Positions 2,949 through 55,259 of a DNA stretch of 64,000 bases are shown in pieces (position 1 is the stretch's first letter; each line of letters starts with the position of its first letter). The notes under the pieces were generated by a model. It made no database searches, had not been told where the DNA came from, and was given only the letters and a program-made list of their open reading frames with translations. Origin of the DNA: Patescibacteria group bacterium (GTDB taxonomy: Bacteria; Patescibacteriota; Saccharimonadia; Saccharimonadales; CAYUUR01). Both the position numbers and the translations under genes were made by a program. The stretch lies in the NCBI GenBank assembly GCA_052034685.1, contig JBPOIH010000008.1, positions 3,502 through 67,501 of the forward strand, written 5' to 3'.

Positions 2949-3989
2949 ATGAGCATTATTAGTGGTGTTTCAGATTTCTTTGGTCTCGATATTGGCACAT
3001 CGGCGATTCGTATGGTGCAATTGACAGGCAGCGGAGCAGTAAAGTCGCTGGTTAAGTATGCGTATGTGCCTGTTGATCCAAAGATTTCCATGAGCGATTC
3101 CAAGGCCGACCAGCAAAAGCTGGTACAAGTTGTGAAAGAACTGATTAGCGAAGCAAAAGTGTCGACCAAAAACGTTGCGGTGGGCTTGCCTTCTGCAAAG
3201 GTATTTACCACAGTCGTAGATATTGACCGTTTGTCGACGGATGAACTCGCCAAGACAATTCGCTTCCAAGCAGATTCACTCATACCGACACCACTGGCAG
3301 ATTCCAAGATAGATTGGGCATTATTAGGCGATTCGCCAAAGGACAAGACAAAAGTTGAAATATTGCTTTCGAGCGTAACCAACGAATTTGTAGAAAACCG
3401 TCTTGATATGCTTGAGTCAATTGGGCTTAATGTCATAGCATTTGAACCAGATAATCTTGCGCTGACGCGTGCACTAACACAGCCGGACGCGCCAGGGGCG
3501 CAGATGGTGCTTGATATCGGCTCCAAGAACACCGATCTTGTTATTACGATGAATGGATCACCGCGCCTGACGCGTTCAATCCCAACAGGTTCAGAAGCAA
3601 TCATTAGAGCTGCCATGCAGAACCTCAGCATTGACGAAAAGCAAGCCCAGCAATTTGTGTTCAAGTTTGGCCTCGGCAAAGATAAGCTCGAAGGACAGAT
3701 CTACAATGCCATTATCGGTACAGTAGAGATATTGACCGGCGAGATAGAGAAGTCAATCAAATTCTTCCAGACACGTTATACGGACGCCAAACTAGACAAA
3801 ATTGTCGTAACGGGCGGTGCTTCATCATTACCAGAATTCCCGCTCCACATAGCGAATAAGTTTGCTATGAGCGTAGAAATTGGTAATGCCTGGCGCAATG
3901 TATCGTTTGATCAATCGCAACAAAATGACCTACTCGCTGTGTCCAACAGCTTCGGCGTGGCGGTAGGGTTAGCGGAGAGAAACGAATGA
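2949..3989 (+). CDS. pilM: Type IV pilus assembly protein PilM (actin-like ATPase fold)
   Basis: N-terminus FFGLDIGTSAIRMVQL is typical of PilM/FtsA-like proteins. The stop overlaps the next start (ATGA). It lies upstream of pilN/O-like genes. Confidence 0.85.
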   Translation: MSIISGVSDFFGLDIGTSAIRMVQLTGSGAVKSLVKYAYVPVDPKISMSDSKADQQKLVQVVKELISEAKVSTKNVAVGLPSAKVFTTVVDIDRLSTDELAKTIRFQADSLIPTPLADSKIDWALLGDSPKDKTKVEILLSSVTNEFVENRLDMLESIGLNVIAFEPDNLALTRALTQPDAPGAQMVLDIGSKNTDLVITMNGSPRLTRSIPTGSEAIIRAAMQNLSIDEKQAQQFVFKFGLGKDKLEGQIYNAIIGTVEILTGEIEKSIKFFQTRYTDAKLDKIVVTGGASSLPEFPLHIANKFAMSVEIGNAWRNVSFDQSQQNDLLAVSNSFGVAVGLAERNE

Positions 3990-5580: not shown

Positions 5581-7389
5581 ATGAGTGTACTCTCCGCAGC
5601 AACCCAACAACAGGTTGAAGAGAGCCTCGTCAAAGAGGGCAAAATAACCAGCACGCAGATAGCTGCAATCAAAAAGAAGGCGGAGACTGATCATACGCCG
5701 TTTTTTAGTGCGCTGGTGAGTGATGGCAAAGTTAGCAATGAAGACTTGACCAAAACCATAGCTCAGGTTACAAACGTTCCGTACGTTAACCTGAGTACCG
5801 CTCGGATTGACCCAGAGGTTCTAAACCTCTTACCACGTGATACGGCGGAGCGCTATATGGCGGTACCGCTTGGTGAGATGCAACATCGTTTGGTGGTTGC
5901 CATGCTTGATGCCGACAATGTGCAGGCCGTCGACTTTTTGTCTAACAAAATTGGCCGACCACTCAAGGTGTATACCGCAAGTGAAGAGGGTATTCGCCAA
6001 GTGCTTGGCCAGTACGACAACGCCAATATCGACAAAGAAGTAGCCGGGGCTCTCGGCACGCATCTTGAAGAAGAAGAAGCCGAAGCTGAAGCTGGCAAGA
6101 AGCCAACCGGTAAAAAGGACGAACAGAGTATCGAGACAGTCGTCCAAGATTCACCGATCAGCAAAGCTTTATCAGCAATACTTGATTACGCCGCAACCAA
6201 CCGGGCTAGCGATATCCATATCGAACCCCTGGAGAAAGAACTCAAGATTCGCTGTCGTGTCGATGGTATCTTGCGCGAAATTATGAAGCTACCTAAGAGT
6301 ACTGAGCCGCCGTTGGTGTCTCGTATCAAGATTCTGGCGAGTCTGAAAATTGATGAGCACCGGATCCCGCAAGACGGTCAGTTCACCATTATGGTCAATA
6401 AGAGACCGATTGACTTGCGTATTGCGATATCGCCAGTCGTTTGGGGTGAACAAGTCGTTATTCGTTTGCTTGATAAAACAGGTACAAGTTTGAAACTCGA
6501 GGATATGGGGTATCGTGGTCGAGCGCTCCGGATGCTACGGAAGGGCGCTGGCAGGCCAAACGGCATGATTCTCACCTCTGGGCCAACCGGTTCTGGTAAG
6601 TCGACCTCTATGTATGCTTTGATCCAGGAGATCAAAAACGACGCCGTTAACATCGTTACGCTTGAAGACCCAGTTGAATACAAGATGTCCGGCATTAACC
6701 AGATACAGGTTAATCCTGACGTTGGCCTGACTTTTGCAACCGGTTTGCGTTCAATTTTGCGTCAAGATCCTGACGTGGTGATGGTCGGTGAGATTCGCGA
6801 TAAGGAGACGGCTACTCTGGCAATTCAAGCCGCATTGACGGGTCACTTGGTGTTCTCGACGCTGCACACTAACTCTGCCGCTGGTATTTTGCCGCGTCTC
6901 CTCGACATGGGGATCGAGCCGTTCTTGATTGCTAGTACCGTTCATACGGTGATTGGTCAGCGACTGGTTCGTCGGATTGCTACCGAACGTGAAGAGTACC
7001 AGTCATCTGCAGCAGAAACAGAGGCCATACACGCAACATTGGGCAAATTTTTGCCAGAAAAAGCTGAAGACGTCGAGAAAGCCAGCAAAGAATTCGGCTA
7101 TAAGAGCTTGCCACTGAAGGGTCAAAATGCTTATACTTTGTTTAAGGGCATAGAAGGTCCCGGTAGCTTGGGTGGCTACAAAGGCCGAATGGGGCTGTTT
7201 GAAGTATTTGAAGTCACCTCCGCCATACAAGATCTTATCTTGAAGCGAGCACCAAGCACTGAGATCCAAAAAGCAGCCCAAGCAGAAGGAATGGTCACAA
7301 TGCGCGAAGACGGCTATTTGAAAGCACTCGAAGGTGATACCAGCTTGGCTGAAGTGGACAGGGTAGCGGCCTCGGATAACAATACATAA
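5581..7389 (+). CDS. pilB: Type IV pilus extension ATPase PilB (GspE family)
   Basis: N-terminal T2SSE_N-like domain. Walker A GPTGSGKST. Asp box, His box and Walker B (VMVGEIRD) of the GspE/PilB family. Confidence 0.9.
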   Translation: MSVLSAATQQQVEESLVKEGKITSTQIAAIKKKAETDHTPFFSALVSDGKVSNEDLTKTIAQVTNVPYVNLSTARIDPEVLNLLPRDTAERYMAVPLGEMQHRLVVAMLDADNVQAVDFLSNKIGRPLKVYTASEEGIRQVLGQYDNANIDKEVAGALGTHLEEEEAEAEAGKKPTGKKDEQSIETVVQDSPISKALSAILDYAATNRASDIHIEPLEKELKIRCRVDGILREIMKLPKSTEPPLVSRIKILASLKIDEHRIPQDGQFTIMVNKRPIDLRIAISPVVWGEQVVIRLLDKTGTSLKLEDMGYRGRALRMLRKGAGRPNGMILTSGPTGSGKSTSMYALIQEIKNDAVNIVTLEDPVEYKMSGINQIQVNPDVGLTFATGLRSILRQDPDVVMVGEIRDKETATLAIQAALTGHLVFSTLHTNSAAGILPRLLDMGIEPFLIASTVHTVIGQRLVRRIATEREEYQSSAAETEAIHATLGKFLPEKAEDVEKASKEFGYKSLPLKGQNAYTLFKGIEGPGSLGGYKGRMGLFEVFEVTSAIQDLILKRAPSTEIQKAAQAEGMVTMREDGYLKALEGDTSLAEVDRVAASDNNT

Positions 7390-30246: not shown

Positions 30247-30323
30247 GGGCTCGTGGTGTAGAGGCCTAACATGCCTCCCTGTCACGGAGGAGATCGCCGG
30301 TTCGAATCCGGTCGGGCCCGCCA
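30247..30323 (+). tRNA. tRNA-Asp (anticodon GTC)
   Basis: Acceptor GGGCTCG/CGGGCCC, anticodon arm CCTCC-CTGTCAC-GGAGG, T-arm GCCGG-TTCGAAT-CCGGT, discriminator G, encoded CCA. Confidence 0.9.
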
Positions 30324-30324
30324 A
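30308..30324 (+). repeat. Direct repeat copy 1 (tRNA-Asp 3' end), CCGGTCGGGCCCGCCAA
   Basis: An identical 17-mer recurs at 31372-31388. Degenerate copies lie at 30491-30502, 31941-31947 and 33159-33170. Confidence 0.85.
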
Positions 30325-30363
30325 TGAAAATGAGTCATCCATGTGATGGCTCTTTTTCATTGG
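30321..30363 (+). terminator. Long hairpin immediately after tRNA-Asp (includes the CCA end)
   Basis: CCAATGAAAA (30321-30330) pairs with TTTTCATTGG (30354-30363). Inner GAG-CATC/GATG-CTC pairs. The U-tract is weak, so terminator function is uncertain. Confidence 0.45.
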
Positions 30364-30377
30364 CCGAGCTTTTCCCA

Positions 30378-30467
30378 GATTCGAACCGGCGATGCAGATT
30401 TGCCTTCAGGCAAAGATGCGAATCGCCAGTTCGGTCGGCAAGGGCTCTCGCAGGAGCTCGCTCCGAG
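30378..30467 (+). repeat. GC-rich composite repeat (X element) containing hairpin module A
   Basis: GATTCGAACCGGCGAT (30378-30393) is the reverse complement of tRNA-Asp 30293-30308. Hairpin GGCGAT...ATCGCC spans 30388-30427. The core CGCAGGAGCTCGCTCCGAG (30449-30467) recurs inverted at 46588-46606. Confidence 0.8.
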
Positions 30468-30550
30468 AAAGCCCGCAGCCGTGCGCAGAAGGTCGGGTCG
30501 CCTAAACGCCAGCCTGTCTGTCCGACAGAACGGACAAGGATCGCCAGCCA

Positions 30551-30645: not shown

Positions 30646-31200
30646 GTGCTGAAACTAATACCTCCCCAGGAACTCGGACCTGTAGATCCTGCAGGTATTC
30701 AAGAGTTCGGTACGATCTACGAAAGAGCAGGTTGGCCTTTTCATTCTGCCATGGACTCCACAGCTGAGGATATTCTACAACCGATTGTAACAACGGTTTT
30801 GGCTTATGACCCCAACGTAAAAGCTATGGCATTTGTAGCTGTCACAGGCGCAGTCCCAGTACATCGGTCACAGATAAATAAAGGCTGGCACTTTGATGGC
30901 CGTACCGTTGTAGCTGCGGACGTATTACCTACAGAATTTGCACTAGGCAGGTTACCGTCCAATCCGGCATTGAGTACATTTATGCGGATGGCAGGCAATA
31001 AAGTGTATGAGTCTCAAGCAGCACAGCGACACCTTTCTGATCTTAGTGATGATGAATTAGCGGTGAAGGGTATTGGGACGCACGCAGTACGCGCGAATAC
31101 TCTGAATTTTCTGAGCGAGCGCACTCTACATCGCTCCGGAATAAACAGAGGCGATGCACCAGTAAAACGTAATTTTCTGGGTGCGAGTTTATATTACTAG
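30646..31200 (+). CDS. Hypothetical protein (184 aa), cassette gene 1
   Basis: GTG start preceded by GGAG. No confident family match. The WHFDG ... TLHRSG spacing faintly resembles the HxD...H of 2OG/Fe(II) oxygenases (speculative). Confidence 0.5.
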   Translation: MLKLIPPQELGPVDPAGIQEFGTIYERAGWPFHSAMDSTAEDILQPIVTTVLAYDPNVKAMAFVAVTGAVPVHRSQINKGWHFDGRTVVAADVLPTEFALGRLPSNPALSTFMRMAGNKVYESQAAQRHLSDLSDDELAVKGIGTHAVRANTLNFLSERTLHRSGINRGDAPVKRNFLGASLYY

Positions 31201-31251: not shown

Positions 31252-31288
31252 GGCGATGCAGCTTGCCCACGGCAAGATGCGAATCGCC
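31252..31288 (+). repeat. Hairpin module A' (second copy)
   Basis: GGCGAT-GCAG-CTTGCC cac GGCAAG-ATGCGA-ATCGCC. It has the same architecture as 30388-30427, with one compensatory pair change. Confidence 0.75.
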
Positions 31289-31371
31289 GGTACGTTCGTG
31301 ACGAGTGCGCACACCCGGCCTCCTGCAAGGAAGCCGGGGAGCACACGAGGAAACGGTTCTAAAAGAACCAC

Positions 31372-31388
31372 CCGGTCGGGCCCGCCAA
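31372..31388 (+). repeat. Direct repeat copy 2 of the tRNA-Asp 3' end (att-like)
   Basis: Exact 17-nt match to 30308-30324, immediately followed by a promoter. Confidence 0.85.
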
Positions 31389-31389
31389 G

Positions 31390-31418
31390 TTGACTTTACA
31401 TAGTGTTTATGCTATTAT
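31390..31418 (+). promoter_or_regulatory. Sigma70-type promoter of cassette gene 2 (leaderless transcript)
   Basis: TTGACT (31390-31395), a 17-nt spacer, TGC-TATTAT (-10 at 31413-31418), then the ATG at 31426, 7 nt after the -10. Confidence 0.65.
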
Positions 31419-31425
31419 AGTGAGT

Positions 31426-31866
31426 ATGAAAAGTTCCAGTGATTTAAGCACGGCTCAACGAGAAGTTCTTCATAGCAACCTGCTCGGTAGCATGGAGTCT
31501 GGTTTAGCTTCAAGATATTTCACTACCCAAAGAGAACACGCTAAACGCTTAGGTCGGCTTGCTAGTAATCCTAACGATCCTTTAGGCGACAAACTCCAAG
31601 AGCTTTCTACGGGCAGAGCGGTGGCAGCAGGGGCAGAGGCACCATTTATGTTTACGACACGACCAAGCAACATGGCCCAAGAACTAATCGCTCTAAAAGC
31701 TAATCCTCAAACAGGCGAGGTAATCCCTGGTTCGGATGTACAAATAGGTCTAATAGGTGGCCTAGCTGGCGAAGGTCGTCCAACTGGTTCATTTACCCCT
31801 GAAGATATTGCTTTGGCAACAGAGTCTATGGCTGCACAAGATGCCGTGGGCCTTCAAGTAAACTAA
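31426..31866 (+). CDS. Hypothetical protein (146 aa), cassette gene 2
   Basis: The ORF frame is open from 31390, but the TTG at 31390 is the -35 hexamer, so I prefer the ATG at 31426. No recognised motif. Confidence 0.5.
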   Translation: MKSSSDLSTAQREVLHSNLLGSMESGLASRYFTTQREHAKRLGRLASNPNDPLGDKLQELSTGRAVAAGAEAPFMFTTRPSNMAQELIALKANPQTGEVIPGSDVQIGLIGGLAGEGRPTGSFTPEDIALATESMAAQDAVGLQVN

Positions 31867-31988
31867 AGTAGCTCCAAACTTCCACGCGCACCCGGTCTCC
31901 TGCAAGGAAGCCGGGGAGCACGAGAGCAGATGTGCGTTACCCGGTCGTACAGCCTGTCTGCCCAACGAACAGACAAGGGTTCAAAAGA

Positions 31989-37433: not shown

Positions 37434-37509
37434 GCCGAAGTAGCTCAGTTGGTAGAGCAGCTCATTCGTAACGAGCAGGTCGCAGGTTCAAGTCCCGTCT
37501 TCGGCTCCA
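37434..37509 (+). tRNA. tRNA-Thr (anticodon CGT)
   Basis: Acceptor GCCGAAG/CTTCGGC, anticodon loop TTCGTAA, T-arm GCAGG-TTCAAGT-CCCGT, discriminator T, encoded CCA. TGCTATAAT box at 37408-37416. Confidence 0.85.
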
Positions 37510-42298: not shown

Positions 42299-43381
42299 AT
42301 GTCCACCTCTGTTTTTAACGTAAAAAATACAAACGGCTTTCAGCGAGTTGGTGTTTTGCATACTCGTGCTGGTGATGTGCCGACGCCGACTTTTATGCCG
42401 GACGGTACCAGGGGTGCGGTGAAGAGCCTGACGCCGGAGATGGTCGAATCTACTGGGGTTGGGGTGGTATTGGCGAATACATACCATCTACACCTGGCCC
42501 CGGGCGAGGATACTATTGCTGAACTTGGCGGACTACACGCCTTTACTAACCGCAAAGGTCCTATGCTGACTGACTCCGGTGGCTTTCAGGTGTTTTCACT
42601 AGCAAAGATCAACAAGATTACCGAAGATGGTGTGACTTTTAAAGACCCCAAGACGGGCGATACAGTGTTCTTGAGCCCAGAGATCTCCATTCAGATACAG
42701 ATGAAACTAGGTGCCGATATGATTGTTGCGTTTGATGACGTGACTGCGCTTGATGCCAAGGGGCGTGACCGCACGCTTGAGGCTTTTGAGCGCACACATC
42801 GTTGGCTGGAGCGTTCTTTGGCCGAGTTTCAGCGTCTCACCAAAGGCATGAAAGATAGTGAGCGACCACTGTTGTTTGGTGTGGTACAGGGTGGGCTCGA
42901 CAAAGAGCTGCGCCGCCGCAGCCTAGAAATCGTACAGTCCTTACCAGTAGACGGCATCGCTATAGGTGGCCTGTCAGTAGGCGAGAGCACCGAAGAAATG
43001 CACGGTATGCTTAAGTTTTTGGCCGATCATTACGATGATTCGCCGCGTCCACGCTTCTTGCTGGGTGTTGGCGACCCGCGTGACTTGCGGTTTGCAATCG
43101 AGCACGGCATCGACATGCTCGATTGCGTGCTGCCAACAAGGAATGCCAGGCATGGAACGGTATGGATCGAAGGCGACAAGCGCGTCCACCTGACGAACGA
43201 ACGTTTTGCTAAAAGCATCGAAGTTATTGACCCTGGCTGCGACTGCTACGCCTGTGCCAAAGGTTTCTCCAAAGGCTTCTTGCGTCACCAGTTCAAAGTG
43301 GGCGAACCTCTTGCCGGCACTTTGGCCAGCATTCACAACATCCGGTATCTGCAACGCATCTGCGAAGAGTATCGGGCTTAA
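42299..43381 (+). CDS. tgt: tRNA-guanine transglycosylase (queuine tRNA-ribosyltransferase)
   Basis: TPTFMPDGT, LTDSGGFQV, GLSVGE, and the zinc site CDCYAC...H. TGCTAGAAT box 7 nt upstream of the ATG. Confidence 0.9.
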   Translation: MSTSVFNVKNTNGFQRVGVLHTRAGDVPTPTFMPDGTRGAVKSLTPEMVESTGVGVVLANTYHLHLAPGEDTIAELGGLHAFTNRKGPMLTDSGGFQVFSLAKINKITEDGVTFKDPKTGDTVFLSPEISIQIQMKLGADMIVAFDDVTALDAKGRDRTLEAFERTHRWLERSLAEFQRLTKGMKDSERPLLFGVVQGGLDKELRRRSLEIVQSLPVDGIAIGGLSVGESTEEMHGMLKFLADHYDDSPRPRFLLGVGDPRDLRFAIEHGIDMLDCVLPTRNARHGTVWIEGDKRVHLTNERFAKSIEVIDPGCDCYACAKGFSKGFLRHQFKVGEPLAGTLASIHNIRYLQRICEEYRA

Positions 43382-46476: not shown

Positions 46477-46537
46477 GCGTCCTCCTTATGTACCATAACT
46501 ATAACAAAAAGCCAGCAGTAATGCCGGCTTCTTATAG

Positions 46538-46552
46538 TGGTAGGCGATAGAG
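46538..46552 (-). repeat. Fragment copy of the tRNA-Val 3' end
   Basis: TGGTAGGCGATAGAG versus TGGTGGGCGATAGAG at 46703-46717 (14 of 15 identical). Confidence 0.7.
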
Positions 46553-46587
46553 CGTAGCGGACTTTGTCCTTTTTCGCCGCAACCATG

Positions 46588-46653
46588 CTCGGAGCGAGCT
46601 CCTGCGCGTGGCCTTGCTTCACCGAACCTCGGCTACGCCGTACGGTTCGAATC
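46588..46653 (-). repeat. Inverted copy of the X element found downstream of tRNA-Asp
   Basis: Reverse complement matches 30378-30467: GATTCGAACCG, GTTCGGT, GCAAGG and the 19-nt core CGCAGGAGCTCGCTCCGAG. The variable hairpin is replaced by CGGC gta GCCG. Confidence 0.8.
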
Positions 46654-46671
46654 GATCGTATGTAAACCAAG

Positions 46672-46700
46672 TAAAAACCCGGCCATAAGCCGGGCCTTTA
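46672..46700 (-). terminator. Intrinsic terminator of tRNA-Val
   Basis: On the minus strand: CCCGGC ttatg GCCGGG followed by TTTTT. Confidence 0.8.
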
Positions 46701-46702
46701 CT

Positions 46703-46779
46703 TGGTGGGCGATAGAGGATTCGAACCTCTCACCTCGTCAACGTCAATGACGCGCTCTAGCCAAATGAGCTAATCGCCC
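46703..46779 (-). tRNA. tRNA-Val (anticodon GAC)
   Basis: Reverse complement GGGCGAT-TA-GCTC...GAGC-G-CGTCA-TTGACGT-TGACG-AGGTG-AGAGG-TTCGAAT-CCTCT-ATCGCCC-A-CCA. Confidence 0.9.
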
Positions 46780-46854
46780 GGATTATAAAAGAACTGCTAT
46801 CTTATTTGGCGGAGCACGTCAGACGCGTCATCTCTCTTTGCAACGGTGTTGCGG

Positions 46855-46875
46855 GCCAAATGAGCTAATCGCCCG
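46855..46875 (-). repeat. Fragment copy of the tRNA-Val 5' end
   Basis: GCCAAATGAGCTAATCGCCCG is identical to 46760-46780 (21 nt). The fragment lacks the rest of the D-arm. Confidence 0.8.
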
Positions 46876-47163
46876 AGCTATATATGGCGCAGAGTTGAAT
46901 TCTGACGCCCTCAGACAGCGATTAGCATACCAGAACAGGGGAGAAAAAGGAAGTATACCTTTTATGAGATAATTTCTATCCCCAGGCAAAATGTAGAAAT
47001 GACAATACTAAAGTACTAGCCATATCATGCTAGTACTGTATACTCATTGATGTGTGAGAGTTTTGATCGGTGTTTTATGCAGGCGCTTTCGAAGATAATT
47101 GCGAGAATCTTTGAACGGCGCTTGTTTCTTTTCCAGGGTATATTGCAGCTCAAAACAGGGGTG

Positions 47164-52870: not shown

Positions 52871-52935
52871 GGTCGGGATGACAAGACTTGAACCTGCGAC
52901 CTCACGGCCCCCAGCCGTACAAGGGGTCCCCACAA
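52871..52935 (-). pseudogene. Truncated tRNA-Pro(GGG)-like 3' fragment (no acceptor 5' strand or D-arm)
   Basis: Reverse complement gives TACGG-CTGGGGG-CCGTG-AGGTC-GCAGG-TTCAAGT-CTTGT-CATCCCG-A-CC. No complementary 5' acceptor strand lies upstream. Confidence 0.65.
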
Positions 52936-52943
52936 AATCTTTA

Positions 52944-53019
52944 TGGTCAGGGTGAGAGGACTTGAACCTCCGGTCTCCGGACCCCCAGCCCGGCGCTTTA
53001 CCAACTAAGCTACACCCTG
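52944..53019 (-). tRNA. tRNA-Pro (anticodon GGG)
   Basis: Reverse complement CAGGGTG-TA-GCTT...AAGC-G-CCGGG-CTGGGGG-TCCGG-AGACC-GGAGG-TTCAAGT-CCTCT-CACCCTG-A-CCA. Confidence 0.85.
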
Positions 53020-53043: not shown

Positions 53044-54072
53044 CTAACGTATCAGCATAGAGTCGCCGTAGGAGAGGAAGTGATACTTTTCTTCAACGGC
53101 CTTCTCGTAGGCTAATTTGAGGTTGTCCCAACCGGCGAAAGCAGCTGTGAGCATCAGTACCGTGCTGCGTGGCGCGTGGAAGTTGGTGAGTAATTGGTCA
53201 ACTATCTTAAACTCATAGCCTGGATAGATGAAGATGTTGGCCTCGCCAGATAGGTTTTGTGGCTTGGCGTCTAGGATGTCAGCTGCACAATACTCAAGTG
53301 TGCGTGTGACGGTGGTACCGATGGCGCAGACTTTATTACGGGACTTTTTGGCTTGCCGAATTGCGGCAACGGTTTCTTCAGGTACCTCATAATACTCACT
53401 GTGCATCTGGTGTTCTTCTACGTTGTCAGTGCGGATGGGCAGGAAGGTGCCAAGACCGACATGCAGAGTGAGGTAGGCAATGTGTACGCCTTTGTTGCGT
53501 AGTCTGGCCTCTAGCTCCTCAGTAAAGTTGAGTGAGGCAGTTGGAGCGGCCACAGAACCGGCGTCACGCGCAAAAACGGTCTGATACCGCTCAGTATCAG
53601 TTTGGTCGGCGTGACGCTTCATGTAGGGCGGTAAAGGAACTTCACCGTAACGTTCGGCGAGGTCAAGTAAGTTTTCCTCTGTTTGGACAATCGCCAGTCC
53701 ACCGTCTAGTACCTCCTTGACGATAATAGTGTGCATATGAACGGTTAGCACTTCACCTGTTCGGATACGGCCACGATACAGTACTTTGTGTTGATGGACG
53801 CCAAATACTTTACCATGCTTTTCGATAAGCAATAACTCACGTTCCTTGCCGTCGTTGTTTTTTGCGATCAAACGCGCCTTAATAACCTTCGTGTTATTGA
53901 GAACCAATAGATCTCCAGTGTCCAGGTAGTCAGCAAGATCAGCGTAGTAATGATGGCTGATGTCACCAGATTTTTTGTCCAAGACTAATAATCGCGTACT
54001 GCCGCGTTGTTCAGGTGGTCGGTCGGCAATCAGTTCGTCAGGGAGTTGGTAATCATAGTCGCTAATTTTCAT
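53044..54072 (-). CDS. queA: S-adenosylmethionine:tRNA ribosyltransferase-isomerase
   Basis: MKISDYDYQLPDELIADRPPEQRGSTRLLVL, PLPPYM, VGLGTF. I prefer the ATG at 54072 (TACAAT 7 nt upstream). The upstream 124 codons of the ORF look non-genic. Confidence 0.9.
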   Translation of the reverse strand: MKISDYDYQLPDELIADRPPEQRGSTRLLVLDKKSGDISHHYYADLADYLDTGDLLVLNNTKVIKARLIAKNNDGKERELLLIEKHGKVFGVHQHKVLYRGRIRTGEVLTVHMHTIIVKEVLDGGLAIVQTEENLLDLAERYGEVPLPPYMKRHADQTDTERYQTVFARDAGSVAAPTASLNFTEELEARLRNKGVHIAYLTLHVGLGTFLPIRTDNVEEHQMHSEYYEVPEETVAAIRQAKKSRNKVCAIGTTVTRTLEYCAADILDAKPQNLSGEANIFIYPGYEFKIVDQLLTNFHAPRSTVLMLTAAFAGWDNLKLAYEKAVEEKYHFLSYGDSMLIR

Positions 54073-54112
54073 CTGTGCTATTGTACGGGAAAATAGGGTA
54101 GAATAGAAACAG

Positions 54113-54868
54113 ATGCAATCGATCCAAGTAACACAAAAAGCGATCCAAGAAATTAGCCGCGGCGAACGCCATGCATTGTTGCTGGTTGGGGCTGCCGCGC
54201 CTTTTTTGGTCGGCGAGGCTGTAGAGCTTGTCAGCCAAGACGCTTCCGAATCTGTCGGCACGATCACTGTCCGCGAGGTTTTGAGTCGGCGATTGCGTGA
54301 TTTTCCTAACCACGAAGACTTGTTAGTTGAAGCCATTGCACCGCATGACTTTGACCCAGACCTCATAGCTACAAAGATAACCTTTTCGTTCCAGCCACAT
54401 GAAAAAAAGCATGAAGTGGAAGGAAATGTTGTAAAAAAATACACAAATATAACAGAGGTAAGTTTGTATGGTGACGGTGGTTCACGTGGTAACCCGGGTC
54501 CGTCTGCTGCCGGTTGGGTTATTTACGACATGGACGGGAATATACTTAAAAGTGACGGCCACTACATGGGCATTACAACCAATAATCAAGCTGAGTACAC
54601 GGCGCTTAAGCTCGGTCTTCTTGATGCTGAACGACTCGGCGCACAACGCGTCAATGTATTCATGGATAGTTTGTTGGTTATTAACCAGCTCAAGGGAGTC
54701 TACAAGGTTAAGAATAAGGAGCTTTGGCCGATTTATGCGGCGATTGTGCAGCAGTGTGAGCAGGCCTTTGACAGTGTGACCTTCACGCACGTGCCGCGAG
54801 AAAAGAATAAAGAGGCTGATGCTATGGTCAACAAAGTTCTGGACGAAGTAGCAGAATCAAATAATTAA
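54113..54868 (+). CDS. RNase H (type 1) with an N-terminal ASCH/PUA-like extension
   Basis: The C-terminal half (LYGDGGSRGNPGPSAAG...NNQAEYTALKLGL...MDSLLVINQ...REKNKEAD) carries the DEDD RNase HI residues. The N-terminal domain of about 110 aa is unassigned. Confidence 0.75.
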   Translation: MQSIQVTQKAIQEISRGERHALLLVGAAAPFLVGEAVELVSQDASESVGTITVREVLSRRLRDFPNHEDLLVEAIAPHDFDPDLIATKITFSFQPHEKKHEVEGNVVKKYTNITEVSLYGDGGSRGNPGPSAAGWVIYDMDGNILKSDGHYMGITTNNQAEYTALKLGLLDAERLGAQRVNVFMDSLLVINQLKGVYKVKNKELWPIYAAIVQQCEQAFDSVTFTHVPREKNKEADAMVNKVLDEVAESNN

Positions 54869-54882
54869 GGTATAATAACAGA

Positions 54883-55233
54883 GCTAGATTATTGGCTAGT
54901 CGCCGCGTATTTTATACGGGGAGGAAAGTCCGGGCAGCATAGGGAATGACAGTTGCTAACGGCAACCGAGGGAAACCTTAGGGAAAGTGCCACAGAAACG
55001 ATACCGCCCAGCCTCGGTTGGGAACGGGTGAAACGAGTGAGGTAAAAGCTCACAGCTGCCTACGGTGACGTAGGGAGGAGGTAAACCCTGTCTGCTGCAA
55101 GGAGATAGACCTACTAGGGTTCCCGCCACGGTTTATCGCTTATCCGCTCGACCTTGTTGGTGACAACAAGGCTAGATAGATGATTAGCCCTCAGTTTACT
55201 GGGGACAGAACCCGGCTTATAGATAATCTAGCT
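54883..55233 (+). ncRNA. rnpB: RNase P RNA (bacterial type A)
   Basis: P1 pairing AGCTAGATTAT/ATAATCTAGCT. Conserved GAGGAAAGTCCGGGC (P4 5' strand) and ACAGAACCCGGCTTA (P4 3' strand). Confidence 0.9.
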
Positions 55234-55259
55234 TTATAACAAGCGCTGTACCGCGCGAG

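Follow-up and report, generated by a model that had tools for sequence, protein, structure and literature searches.

A tRNA-derived repeat unit with a conserved hairpin module beside tRNA genes of Saccharibacteria

Saccharibacteria are episymbionts with reduced genomes, and the means of gene flux among them are poorly known. The attC sites of integrons and the attP hairpin of phage CTX recombine as folded single-stranded DNA, and in attC the extrahelical bases serve both recognition and strand choice. In Archaea, tRNA introns occur at non-canonical positions that include the T-loop. Islands and tycheposons that integrate at tRNA genes leave partial-tRNA repeats (attL/attR), accrete in tandem and build up cargo (bioRxiv 10.1101/2020.12.28.424599; PMC9897764). 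GOLLD and ROOL are conserved structured RNAs that often lie beside tRNA genes and whose function is open (PMC5737381). The present analysis concerns a stretch of 64,000 nucleotides (nt), referred to as the window, from contig JBPOIH010000008.1 of a member of the Saccharimonadales, in which an initial annotation had described a composite repeat, the X element, next to two different tRNA genes. X is a tRNA-derived repeat unit and not a transposon. The account favoured here, to which a probability of about 0.45 is given, holds that repeat-mediated recombination moves and removes the units, and that selection keeps their central module as a folded sense strand, probably a trailer RNA bound by a putative factor.

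A partial tRNA copy split by a hairpin module

The element was recognised by a 19-mer, CGCAGGAGCTCGCTCCGAG, which has two exact copies in the window (30449-30467 on the plus strand and 46588-46606 on the minus strand) and no third. Its chance expectation in the window is 0, also with up to three mismatches, as shuffled sequences gave none, and the longest inverted repeat of the window (I1, 30 nt, 90% complementary) includes it. The other shared blocks lie where they had been placed: GATTCGAACCG at 30378 (+) and 46653-46643 (-), GTTCGGT at 30429 (+) and 46627-46621 (-), and GCAAGG at 30438 (+) and 46617-46612 (-). Both copies are rich in GC (60% in 30378-30467 and 65% in 46588-46653, against 47.9% for the window), and both stand 3' of a tRNA gene by ARAGORN and Rfam, since tRNA-Asp and tRNA-Val precede them (Table 1). 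The opposite orientation that had been reported is real in window coordinates but disappears relative to the tRNA genes: each copy lies 97-126 nt downstream of its own tRNA and on the strand of that tRNA, with the same orientation and position. Between the first two blocks the Asp copy carries a long hairpin (30394-30419) and the Val copy only CGGC-GTA-GCCG. The proposal of a swappable hairpin is borne out for the apex of the hairpin called P1 below, where close relatives show compensatory differences. What had gone unremarked is that GATTCGAACCG and GTTCGGT are T-arm sequence, forming inverted and direct partial copies of the adjoining tRNA, and that the 19-mer is the top of a covarying hairpin. 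Short open reading frames (ORFs) span both copies; a protein-coding reading was rejected as these are not conserved as frames, since the shared blocks lie in differing frames, with spacers of 2 nt versus 3 nt restoring the frame. Judged by these comparisons, X is non-coding.

Further members of the family were recovered through the exact 19-mer or through a model built from such members, and genomes other than the window were seen as 8-kb pieces. Each unit is a second, partial copy of the adjoining tRNA (about nt 44-76) whose T-loop is split by the module at about nt 58/59. The right flank matches the tail of its own tRNA at a mean of 13.5 of 16 positions, compared with 8.6 for the tails at other loci (p = 4e-9), and reaches at least 14 of 16 in 22 of 33 loci. 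The left flank (about nt 44-57) matches its own tRNA at 9.3 of 14 positions and other tRNAs at 7.4 (p = 5e-5), with a full 14/14 in locus L042. Identity of the right flank starts at nt 58-60 in 19 of 26 loci and that of the left flank stops at nt 56-59 in 8 of 10; this places the module in the T-loop of the partial tRNA copy. Most loci have a tail repeat of 17-21 nt; it is 15 nt long at tRNA-Val of the window and reaches about 45 nt in L035 and about 65 nt in L051, and the distance from hairpin P2 to the junction ranges from about 23 to 45 nt. Depending on the subtype, the module begins with GTGGAGC, TAATCGAGG or TTCATGAAC and ends in GCYA, TATA or CTGT.

The window also holds a partial tRNA copy that is free of the module. 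This 46-nt fragment, from the anticodon loop to the 3' end, lies at 52871-52916 (-), directly 3' of tRNA-Pro (52944-53019). Its identity to tRNA-Pro is 78%, the T-arm agrees with tRNA-Thr (37477-37502), and a terminator follows.

The leading idea of the initial annotation was that X is an element of the kind of repetitive extragenic palindromes (REP) or miniature inverted-repeat transposable elements (MITE), moved by a transposase. The copies are indeed short, rich in GC, hairpin-forming, intergenic and dispersed. However, they have neither terminal inverted repeats nor conserved ends, and their number is low: there are two in 64 kb, and these share only the 19-mer and short blocks, about 40 nt in all. 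Outside the core there is strong divergence among copies of the same genome, the flanking repeat takes its sequence from the adjoining tRNA and ranges in length from 15 to about 65 nt, and every copy lies within a tRNA fragment. The idea is already contradicted by these observations, and hardly any weight is left to it.

The module itself measures 55-95 nt, and the smallest units (130-190 nt) contain no gene. At its centre stands P2, whose upper part is the 19-mer. Here the first C pairs with the last G, and GGAG pairs with CTCC in a 4-bp stem around the loop CTCG, leaving GCA (5') and GA (3') unpaired; the Asp copy shows this arrangement at 30449-30467. A model of the 45-nt core, R1, found 12 more copies without the exact 19-mer. 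Their apical stems stay paired (GGTG/CACC, GGAA/TTCC, GAAG/CTTC, GATG/CATC, and GGAG/TTCC with one G.U), their loops read CTCG, CTTG, CTAG, TTTA or TACA, and the internal loop CGCAG...CGAG is constant in all 12 except two (L011b and the truncated unit of L015). Over the family, the apical loop is usually CUYG on a 4-bp stem. The lower helix of P2 has 6-11 pairs that covary freely, with a score of 0.396 versus 0.124 in shuffled alignments (0/500 reach it); sliding the partners gives at most 0.11, and P2 is also borne out by the type A alignment. At the second position of this helix, C stands opposite A in 45 of 48 sequences.

Around P2, the units differ in their parts. Units of type A carry an extra hairpin, P3, with some covariation, after a purine-rich joiner (GGAGAAG and similar), and units of type B have P2 only. 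Most units also have P1, a helix between the inverted and the direct copy of the T-arm that is capped by a variable hairpin. The inverted strand extends further in 8 of 33 loci, where it forms a specific helix, P0, with the tail copy, and the minimum-energy folds of such units are four-way junctions. The inverted strand of L010 and L059 is perfectly complementary to the tail of the real tRNA. A terminator-type hairpin like the one between tRNA-Asp and its unit (term1) was found in most family members. This own terminator and the inverted T-arm strand are optional parts, as both are absent from the unit of L001, which lies 13 nt after tRNA-Met. At 3451-3590 of the same locus, upstream of the real gene, a partial tRNA-Met copy of the 5' part (nt 1-38) holds a type B module in its anticodon loop; because this module is downstream of a TATACT box and upstream of the tRNA, it should belong to the primary transcript of the tRNA. 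No terminator separates the tRNA from the unit in L001 and L013, and this arrangement of the sequence would imply that the two are co-transcribed there.

Table 1. Features of the tRNA-Asp and tRNA-Val loci of the window and the basis on which each was assigned
Feature	Position	Strand	Basis
tRNA-Asp (GTC), intact	30247-30323	+	ARAGORN; Rfam tRNA, 59.7 bits
Terminator-type hairpin term1 between tRNA-Asp and unit (A-tract, stem, T-tract, pairing from CCA on)	30324-30363	+	terminator scan (30332-30352 and T-run); sequence
Inverted copy of the tRNA-Asp T-arm, 5' strand of P1	30378-30393	+	exact reverse complement of 30293-30308 (16 nt); pairs with 30420-30434 in the minimum-energy fold
Apical hairpin A of P1, variable part	30394-30419	+	fold; compensatory differences from L017
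Direct partial copy of tRNA-Asp, about nt 46-57 (T-stem 5' strand and TTCG), 3' strand of P1	30420-30434	+	10/14 match to tRNA-Asp
Hairpin P2, lower helix GGGCTCT/AAAGCCC with C.A mismatch	30442-30474	+	covariation; compensatory variants of the apical stem; model R1, 56.2 bits
Small hairpin in the position of P3, CGCA GCCG TGCG	30474-30485	+	fold; covariation of P3 in the type A alignment
Degenerate direct copy of the tRNA-Asp 3' tail (GGTCGGGTCGCCTA)	30491-30504	+	sequence; identical in L017
Cargo segment absent from close relative L017	30508-31985	+	comparison with L017; promoter scan
Second unit of the tRNA-Asp array, with another module (Y) in the same slot	31252-31388	+	repeats; sequence
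Third, degenerate unit: second Y hairpin (31885-31926) and decayed tRNA-Asp tail	31885-31950	+	repeat family D7, 90% identity
Original tRNA-Val terminator (term2), displaced by the unit	46499-46537	-	directly behind the tRNA in L078
Complete tRNA-Val unit, 165 nt	46538-46702	-	exactly what the empty allele L078 is without
Direct copy of the tRNA-Val tail, CTCTATCGCCTACCA	46538-46552	-	sequence comparison (14/15 identical to tRNA-Val)
Hairpin P3 (GCGG-CGAAAAAG-GAC-AAA-GTC-CGC)	46557-46580	-	fold; alignment
Hairpin P2 with the 19-mer (46588-46606), lower helix GGCCACG/CATGGTT with C.A mismatch	46581-46613	-	model R1, 56.4 bits; covariation
Hairpin P1: GATTCGAACC, GTA-CGGC-GTA-GCCG-A, GGTTCGGTG	46620-46653	-	fold
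Terminator hairpin of the unit itself (term1)	46667-46702	-	sequence; terminator scan
tRNA-Val (GAC), intact	46703-46779	-	ARAGORN; Rfam

Distribution, alleles and arrays of the units

In species-representative genomes the exact 19-mer occurs at 33 loci, 25 of which are true members with flanks as in the window copies; the other 8 are isolated matches in high-GC coding sequence, about the number expected by chance. Metagenomes gave 42 loci, 34 of them true, which brings the exact-19-mer loci in Saccharibacteria genomes and metagenomes to about 59. With the same flanks at 25 genome and 34 metagenome loci, the view of a dispersed family associated with tRNA genes prevails over that of a one-off duplication. 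Nearly all of the 25 true genome loci are labelled Saccharibacteria, and the few with other labels are probably mis-binned, because they share neighbouring genes with Saccharibacteria loci. Distance and orientation were tabulated as the initial annotation had advised, and a tRNA lies upstream on the same strand wherever the contig allows. ARAGORN found it for 36 of 52 distinct units, with the first units 66-126 nt downstream of it, and the adjoining tRNAs cover at least 13 amino acids (Trp, Met, Arg, Ser, Thr, Asp, Phe, Ala, Leu, Glu, Pro, Gln and Val). Among the remaining 16 units, some are at contig ends, and those of L048 and L014 follow a tRNA that ARAGORN overlooks because it contains a group I intron. 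This intron sits in the anticodon loop (L048 1020-1271; L014 4660-4976), X units come after it, and the tRNA is apparently tRNA-Tyr (anticodon GTA). L048 also has a match to the DUF3800-IX RNA motif at 6166-6229 (48 bits; gathering score 36.8).

A comparison of sister strains, likewise proposed at the outset, showed that the tRNA-Val copy is present in some and absent in others. The alleles were collected by exact look-up of the adjoining 67-aa protein, which is identical in the three strains found. L077 is a filled allele and identical to the window. In L078, sequence ending in CGCCCACCA is joined directly to CTATAAGAAGCCGGC, that is, the CCA of the tRNA to the old terminator, and exactly 165 nt are gone, including one 15-nt repeat. 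L076 is also without the Val unit, and its terminator is a hybrid that starts as term1 and ends as term2. From the sequences, L078 and the filled allele may differ by an insertion or a deletion, in either direction. Since the joints of L078 and L076 differ, at least one of the empty forms, perhaps both, would be a deletion.

On the 5' side of tRNA-Val, the first 21 nt of this gene (GGGCGATTAGCTCATTTGGC) are duplicated 95 nt upstream of it (46855-46882, compare 46760-46787). The stretch between the duplicates ends in a TATAAT-like box, and the arrangement is common to L077 and L078. L076 has unrelated sequence there, and the 5' side of tRNA-Val is therefore polymorphic too.

The tRNA-Asp locus is an array (Table 1). 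A second version of hairpin A is found at 31258-31280, and the order within the second unit is hairpin A', GAATCGCCGGT, the Y hairpin and an exact 17-nt copy of the tRNA-Asp tail (31372-31388). The Y hairpin (CGCRCACCCGGYCTCCTGCAAGGAAGCCGGGGAGCAC; also given as CCCGGYCTCCTGCAAGGAAGCCGGGG) occurs at 31308-31349 and 31885-31926, in both cases in the slot that the X module takes in partial copies of tRNA-Asp; it is absent from the 75 loci examined and from the viral contigs of IMG/VR. The cargo segment of about 1.5 kb contains two small ORFs (30646-31200 and 31390-31866), for which no Pfam match was found, each with its own promoter; the promoter-like sites score 9-10 of 12. In L017, the X unit directly abuts the promoter of a Fic-domain gene. 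The right-hand 95 nt or so of the Asp unit are identical in the window and L017, whereas nearby sequence differs by 7-10% (estimated by eye) and the left part of the unit by more than 30%, with compensatory changes. The hairpin CAGCCTGTCTGYCCRAC..GACAAGG occurs twice, at 30510-30540 and 31950-31980, in each case just upstream of a cassette promoter, and is not present in L017. The contigs obtained by exact-protein look-up for further tRNA-Asp alleles all stop within the array. One sample (Logan run SRR34217542) contributes two contigs, L079 and L080, that terminate on opposite sides of it, and the repeats appear to break short-read assemblies.

Arrays, some with truncated units or cargo ORFs, also occur in L015, L025, L048 and L011. 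Near-identical flanks of P2 are found beside unlike tRNAs (Ser-CGA/Ser-TGA/Leu; Phe/Gln/Ser/Met; Met/Arg/Trp), both within one genome and across genomes, and the same 29 nt as in P1 of the Val unit stand beside tRNA-Arg(TCT) in L034. As P2 flanks and the Val P1 recur in this way beside different tRNAs, the units are mosaics. L015 and L018, a pair on contig DHXX01000012.1, have an identical P2.

Alternatively, the repeats and arrays could be explained by a dedicated system of site-specific recombination that uses X as its attachment site. In that case the units would be miniature non-autonomous cassettes whose recombinase is encoded elsewhere and whose target is the 3' end of a tRNA gene; P1, P2 and, if present, P0 would fold in single-stranded DNA, and the internal loop and C.A mismatch would act like the extrahelical bases of attC. 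A recombination site had been considered in the initial annotation, and the direct repeats of the tRNA 3' end around the units and the arrays with cargo genes agree with it; a linked recombinase does not appear. Tail repeats bound every unit, each cargo cassette of the tandem arrays ends in an X or Y module, and every unit brings its own terminator, so the tRNA stays functional. The structure is conserved with free stem sequence, the fold is strand-asymmetric, and the perfect complementarity at L010 and L059 would also fit. The T-loop and the anticodon loop are reportedly the classic places at which tyrosine integrases cross over in tRNA genes.

Other observations speak against such a system. 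Neither window unit has a recombinase beside it, by Pfam search of the neighbouring proteins. Clustering of 183 ORFs from 46 loci, with a Pfam search of the recurrent neighbours, revealed no recurrent recombinase, reverse transcriptase or transposase near the units, and the only recombinase, of the serine type, was met twice, in L011 and L022. Three features speak against cleavage at a fixed site: the variable length of the repeat (15 to about 65 nt), the variable distance between P2 and the junction (about 23 to 45 nt) and the absence of conserved sequence where the module borders the junction. In addition, the cassettes have promoters of their own, and no copy exists in the viral, phage and plasmid collections: the 19-mer is absent from IMG/VR and BLAST against phage and plasmid records gave no match, for which reason a phage or plasmid origin was rejected. 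A dedicated recombination system is therefore rated as possible but rather unlikely. The two serine recombinases are large proteins with Resolvase and Recombinase domains that abut a tRNA gene (L011 498-2126 (-); L022 3730-5295 (-)). In L011, an island of about 4 kb lies between tRNA-Glu and a displaced tRNA-Glu tail with X units, and in L022 the recombinase is unrelated to the unit.

It may also be asked whether the units are inert scars, that is, the right-hand attachment sites of larger tRNA-integrating islands that have decayed. The module-free partial tRNA copies beside tRNA-Pro and upstream of tRNA-Val would fit, as such fragments are a known footprint of integration (bioRxiv 10.1101/2020.12.28.424599; PMC9897764), and so would the serine-recombinase island of L011 at tRNA-Glu. 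A scar is not expected, however, to keep an identical core and covarying stems over at least 24 species-level genomes, or to stay identical over 95 nt while its surroundings diverge, and inert remains are considered very improbable.

The folded strand and the possible role of the module

In 41 of 51 units, the tRNA-sense strand gives the more stable fold of the unit as a whole. P1, folded without the terminator, prefers the same strand (25 versus 4) and has 49 G.U pairs there versus 16 on the other, and the orthologous tRNA-Trp units pass through a series of A-U, G.U and G-C in P1. Loops and joiners of the sense strand are purine-rich. Antisense as the functional strand, an idea prompted by reading C.A as U.G, was rejected for the whole unit on account of the sense-strand stability of unit and P1.

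These results are most readily combined in the account given at the beginning, in which recombination and selection act together. A unit between two copies of a tRNA tail would be looped out and re-inserted by recombination through those repeats, or possibly through the conserved core of another unit. Such exchange would explain why alleles with and without a unit exist, why unlike units stand in tandem arrays and some are truncated, why the repeat varies in length and how small gene cassettes became trapped. The module would be kept at each locus as a folded single strand in tRNA sense, and it likely takes the form of an RNA in the 3' trailer of the tRNA (at one locus the 5' leader) that serves as the binding site of a putative factor. 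Its conservation at individual loci argues for a function and not a scar, and the terminator-less units of L001 and L013 and the pattern of G.U pairs favour RNA.

Several points weigh against this account. A strong terminator-type hairpin precedes most units and no promoter-like site does, so RNA of the unit could arise only by read-through. P2 alone folds better on the opposite strand in 41 of 51 units, where C.A, and the A.C pairs of some subfamilies, would become G.U. This preference is due only to the position of the C.A and to the A.C pairs of one subfamily; the sense strand is here tentatively taken as the folded one and C.A as part of a putative recognition motif. The closing helix P0 is specific in only 8 of 33 loci, and a repeat of 15-19 nt is short for ordinary homologous recombination. 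The model also leaves the first entry of the module into T-loops unexplained, gives no reason for the accompanying inverted T-arm copy and names no binding partner. Finally, the invariance of the 19-mer is partly a product of how members were found, and only about 12 variants indicate which of its positions may be free.

The same conservation can be read as that of an independent gene for a non-coding RNA whose cellular role would be connected with the tRNA 3' end, for instance as a decoy, a splint or an element of processing or quality control. It would have originated from a duplicated 3' third of a tRNA, gene conversion would keep it alike, and gain and loss would be ordinary, with no mobility. 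This would suit the strongly conserved motif and covarying stems, the sense-specific G.U pairs, the loops (CUYG, GAA) and purine-rich joiners, the right half that is identical in the window and L017 despite neutral divergence nearby, the CCA retained in the tail copy, and the inverted strand that is antisense to the T-arm and the 3' acceptor strand. On the other hand, a terminator without a promoter lies upstream, close strains lose the unit without visible consequence, the arrays contain unlike and truncated units, and there is no match to an Rfam family. By reading of the sequences, P0 pairs into the CCA and leaves no NCCA overhang, which speaks against mimicry of the acceptor end. A cellular RNA of this kind is regarded as doubtful. 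Mimicry of a tRNA acceptor/T minihelix was itself rejected, as P0 is not general and, at L049 and L059, is read as pairing into CCA.

A further possibility is suggested by the inverted strand, which is complementary to the tRNA on both sides of the module site (nt 44-58 and nt 59-72). By analogy, this layout could be that of a targeting guide, comparable to the exon-binding sites of group II introns or the target loop of the IS110 bridge RNA. The unit might then be a tiny mobile element with its own guide, in which a circle of about 165 nt of RNA or single-stranded DNA, folded as a rod or a four-way junction, pairs with the T-loop of a matching tRNA gene and is inserted by a trans-acting enzyme that recognises P2. 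This is thought quite improbable.

Searches for known families returned little that resembles the module. Rfam 15 gave nothing at the gathering score and, at E-values up to 10, nothing overlapping it; neither ARAGORN nor the Rfam tRNA model calls the units as tRNA. Compared by eye, a hammerhead core, a kink-turn and loop E do not fit, and a sequestered Shine-Dalgarno sequence in AGGAG was rejected on the variants GGTG, GGAA, GAAG and GATG, which are without it. A full-text literature search for the motif sequence found nothing, and one for Saccharibacteria/TM7 with tRNA-linked RNA motifs found nothing relevant. Elsewhere in the window, a bacterial type A RNase P RNA lies at 54884-55235 (+) (262.7 bits), with the queuosine tRNA-modification genes TGT (42299-43381) and QueA (53044-54444) near it.

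Significance and comparison with known systems

By these searches, X would be a family of tRNA-fragment repeats without earlier description in the literature covered or in Rfam. It marks the tRNA genes of Saccharibacteria as structured landing pads prone to recombination, where small cassettes come and go between near-identical strains. P2 is a sharply defined motif absent from Rfam and offers a direct handle on its partner. If that partner is a recombinase, the Candidate Phyla Radiation would have an integron-like cassette system on tRNA genes; if it is an RNA-binding factor, the units would form a new class of RNA made from tRNA parts. On the practical side, X units appear to break assemblies, as at the ends of the two SRR34217542 contigs.

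With REP, bacterial interspersed mosaic elements (BIME) and MITEs, X shares a short, GC-rich, palindromic, intergenic and dispersed form. It differs from them in having neither terminal inverted repeats nor a target duplication of fixed length, in being strictly tied to tRNA fragments, and in copies that are ancient and diverged instead of recent or near-identical. REP and BIME are built on imperfect palindromes of 20-40 nt that have a conserved head and number tens to hundreds per genome, whereas X units are assembled over 130-190 nt from tRNA pieces and R1 finds 2 in 64 kb.

GOLLD and ROOL resemble X in their conserved structure and frequent place beside tRNA genes. These RNAs are, however, 400-800 nt long, often reside in prophages and are not built from the adjoining tRNA, and X matches neither. 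Archaeal tRNA introns have in common with X an insertion precisely in the T-loop (about nt 58/59) or the anticodon loop of tRNA-like sequence, but the split copy of X is a fragment unable to make a tRNA, and the host is bacterial.

The likeness to attC and the attP of CTX is closer in form. In X, too, the structure is conserved with free stem sequence, unpaired or mismatched bases stand in fixed places, the apex varies and the two strands differ in how they fold; in single-stranded DNA, a duplex could form between the inverted copy of the target and its direct copy. As in attC arrays, one X or Y site ends each cassette. Unlike attC, X has no IntI- or Xer-type gene near its units, its cassettes have their own promoters, its target is a tRNA gene and not attI or dif, and it keeps an 11-nt sequence motif that attC sites are without. 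It does not fit the core sites RYYYAAC/GTTRRRY either: TTCGAAC agrees at 5 of 7 positions and GTTCGGT at 6 of 7 (by own count), and this partial fit is due to the T-loop sequence.

Elements that integrate at tRNA genes differ from X in four respects. The smallest X units, at 130-190 nt, have no gene; the units contain no integrase, and only in L011 does a serine recombinase lie between tRNA and units; a conserved, covarying hairpin splits the partial tRNA copy, which usually comes with an inverted T-arm copy; and the repeat length and the module ends are variable. As in those elements, X units are flanked by a copy of the 3' part of a tRNA that is itself intact, their junctions lie in the T-loop or the anticodon loop, and filled (L077) and empty (L078, L076) alleles exist, as they do for the cargo segment in comparison with L017, through insertion or deletion. 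Like such elements, X units pile up behind one tRNA between partial copies of it and accumulate cargo.

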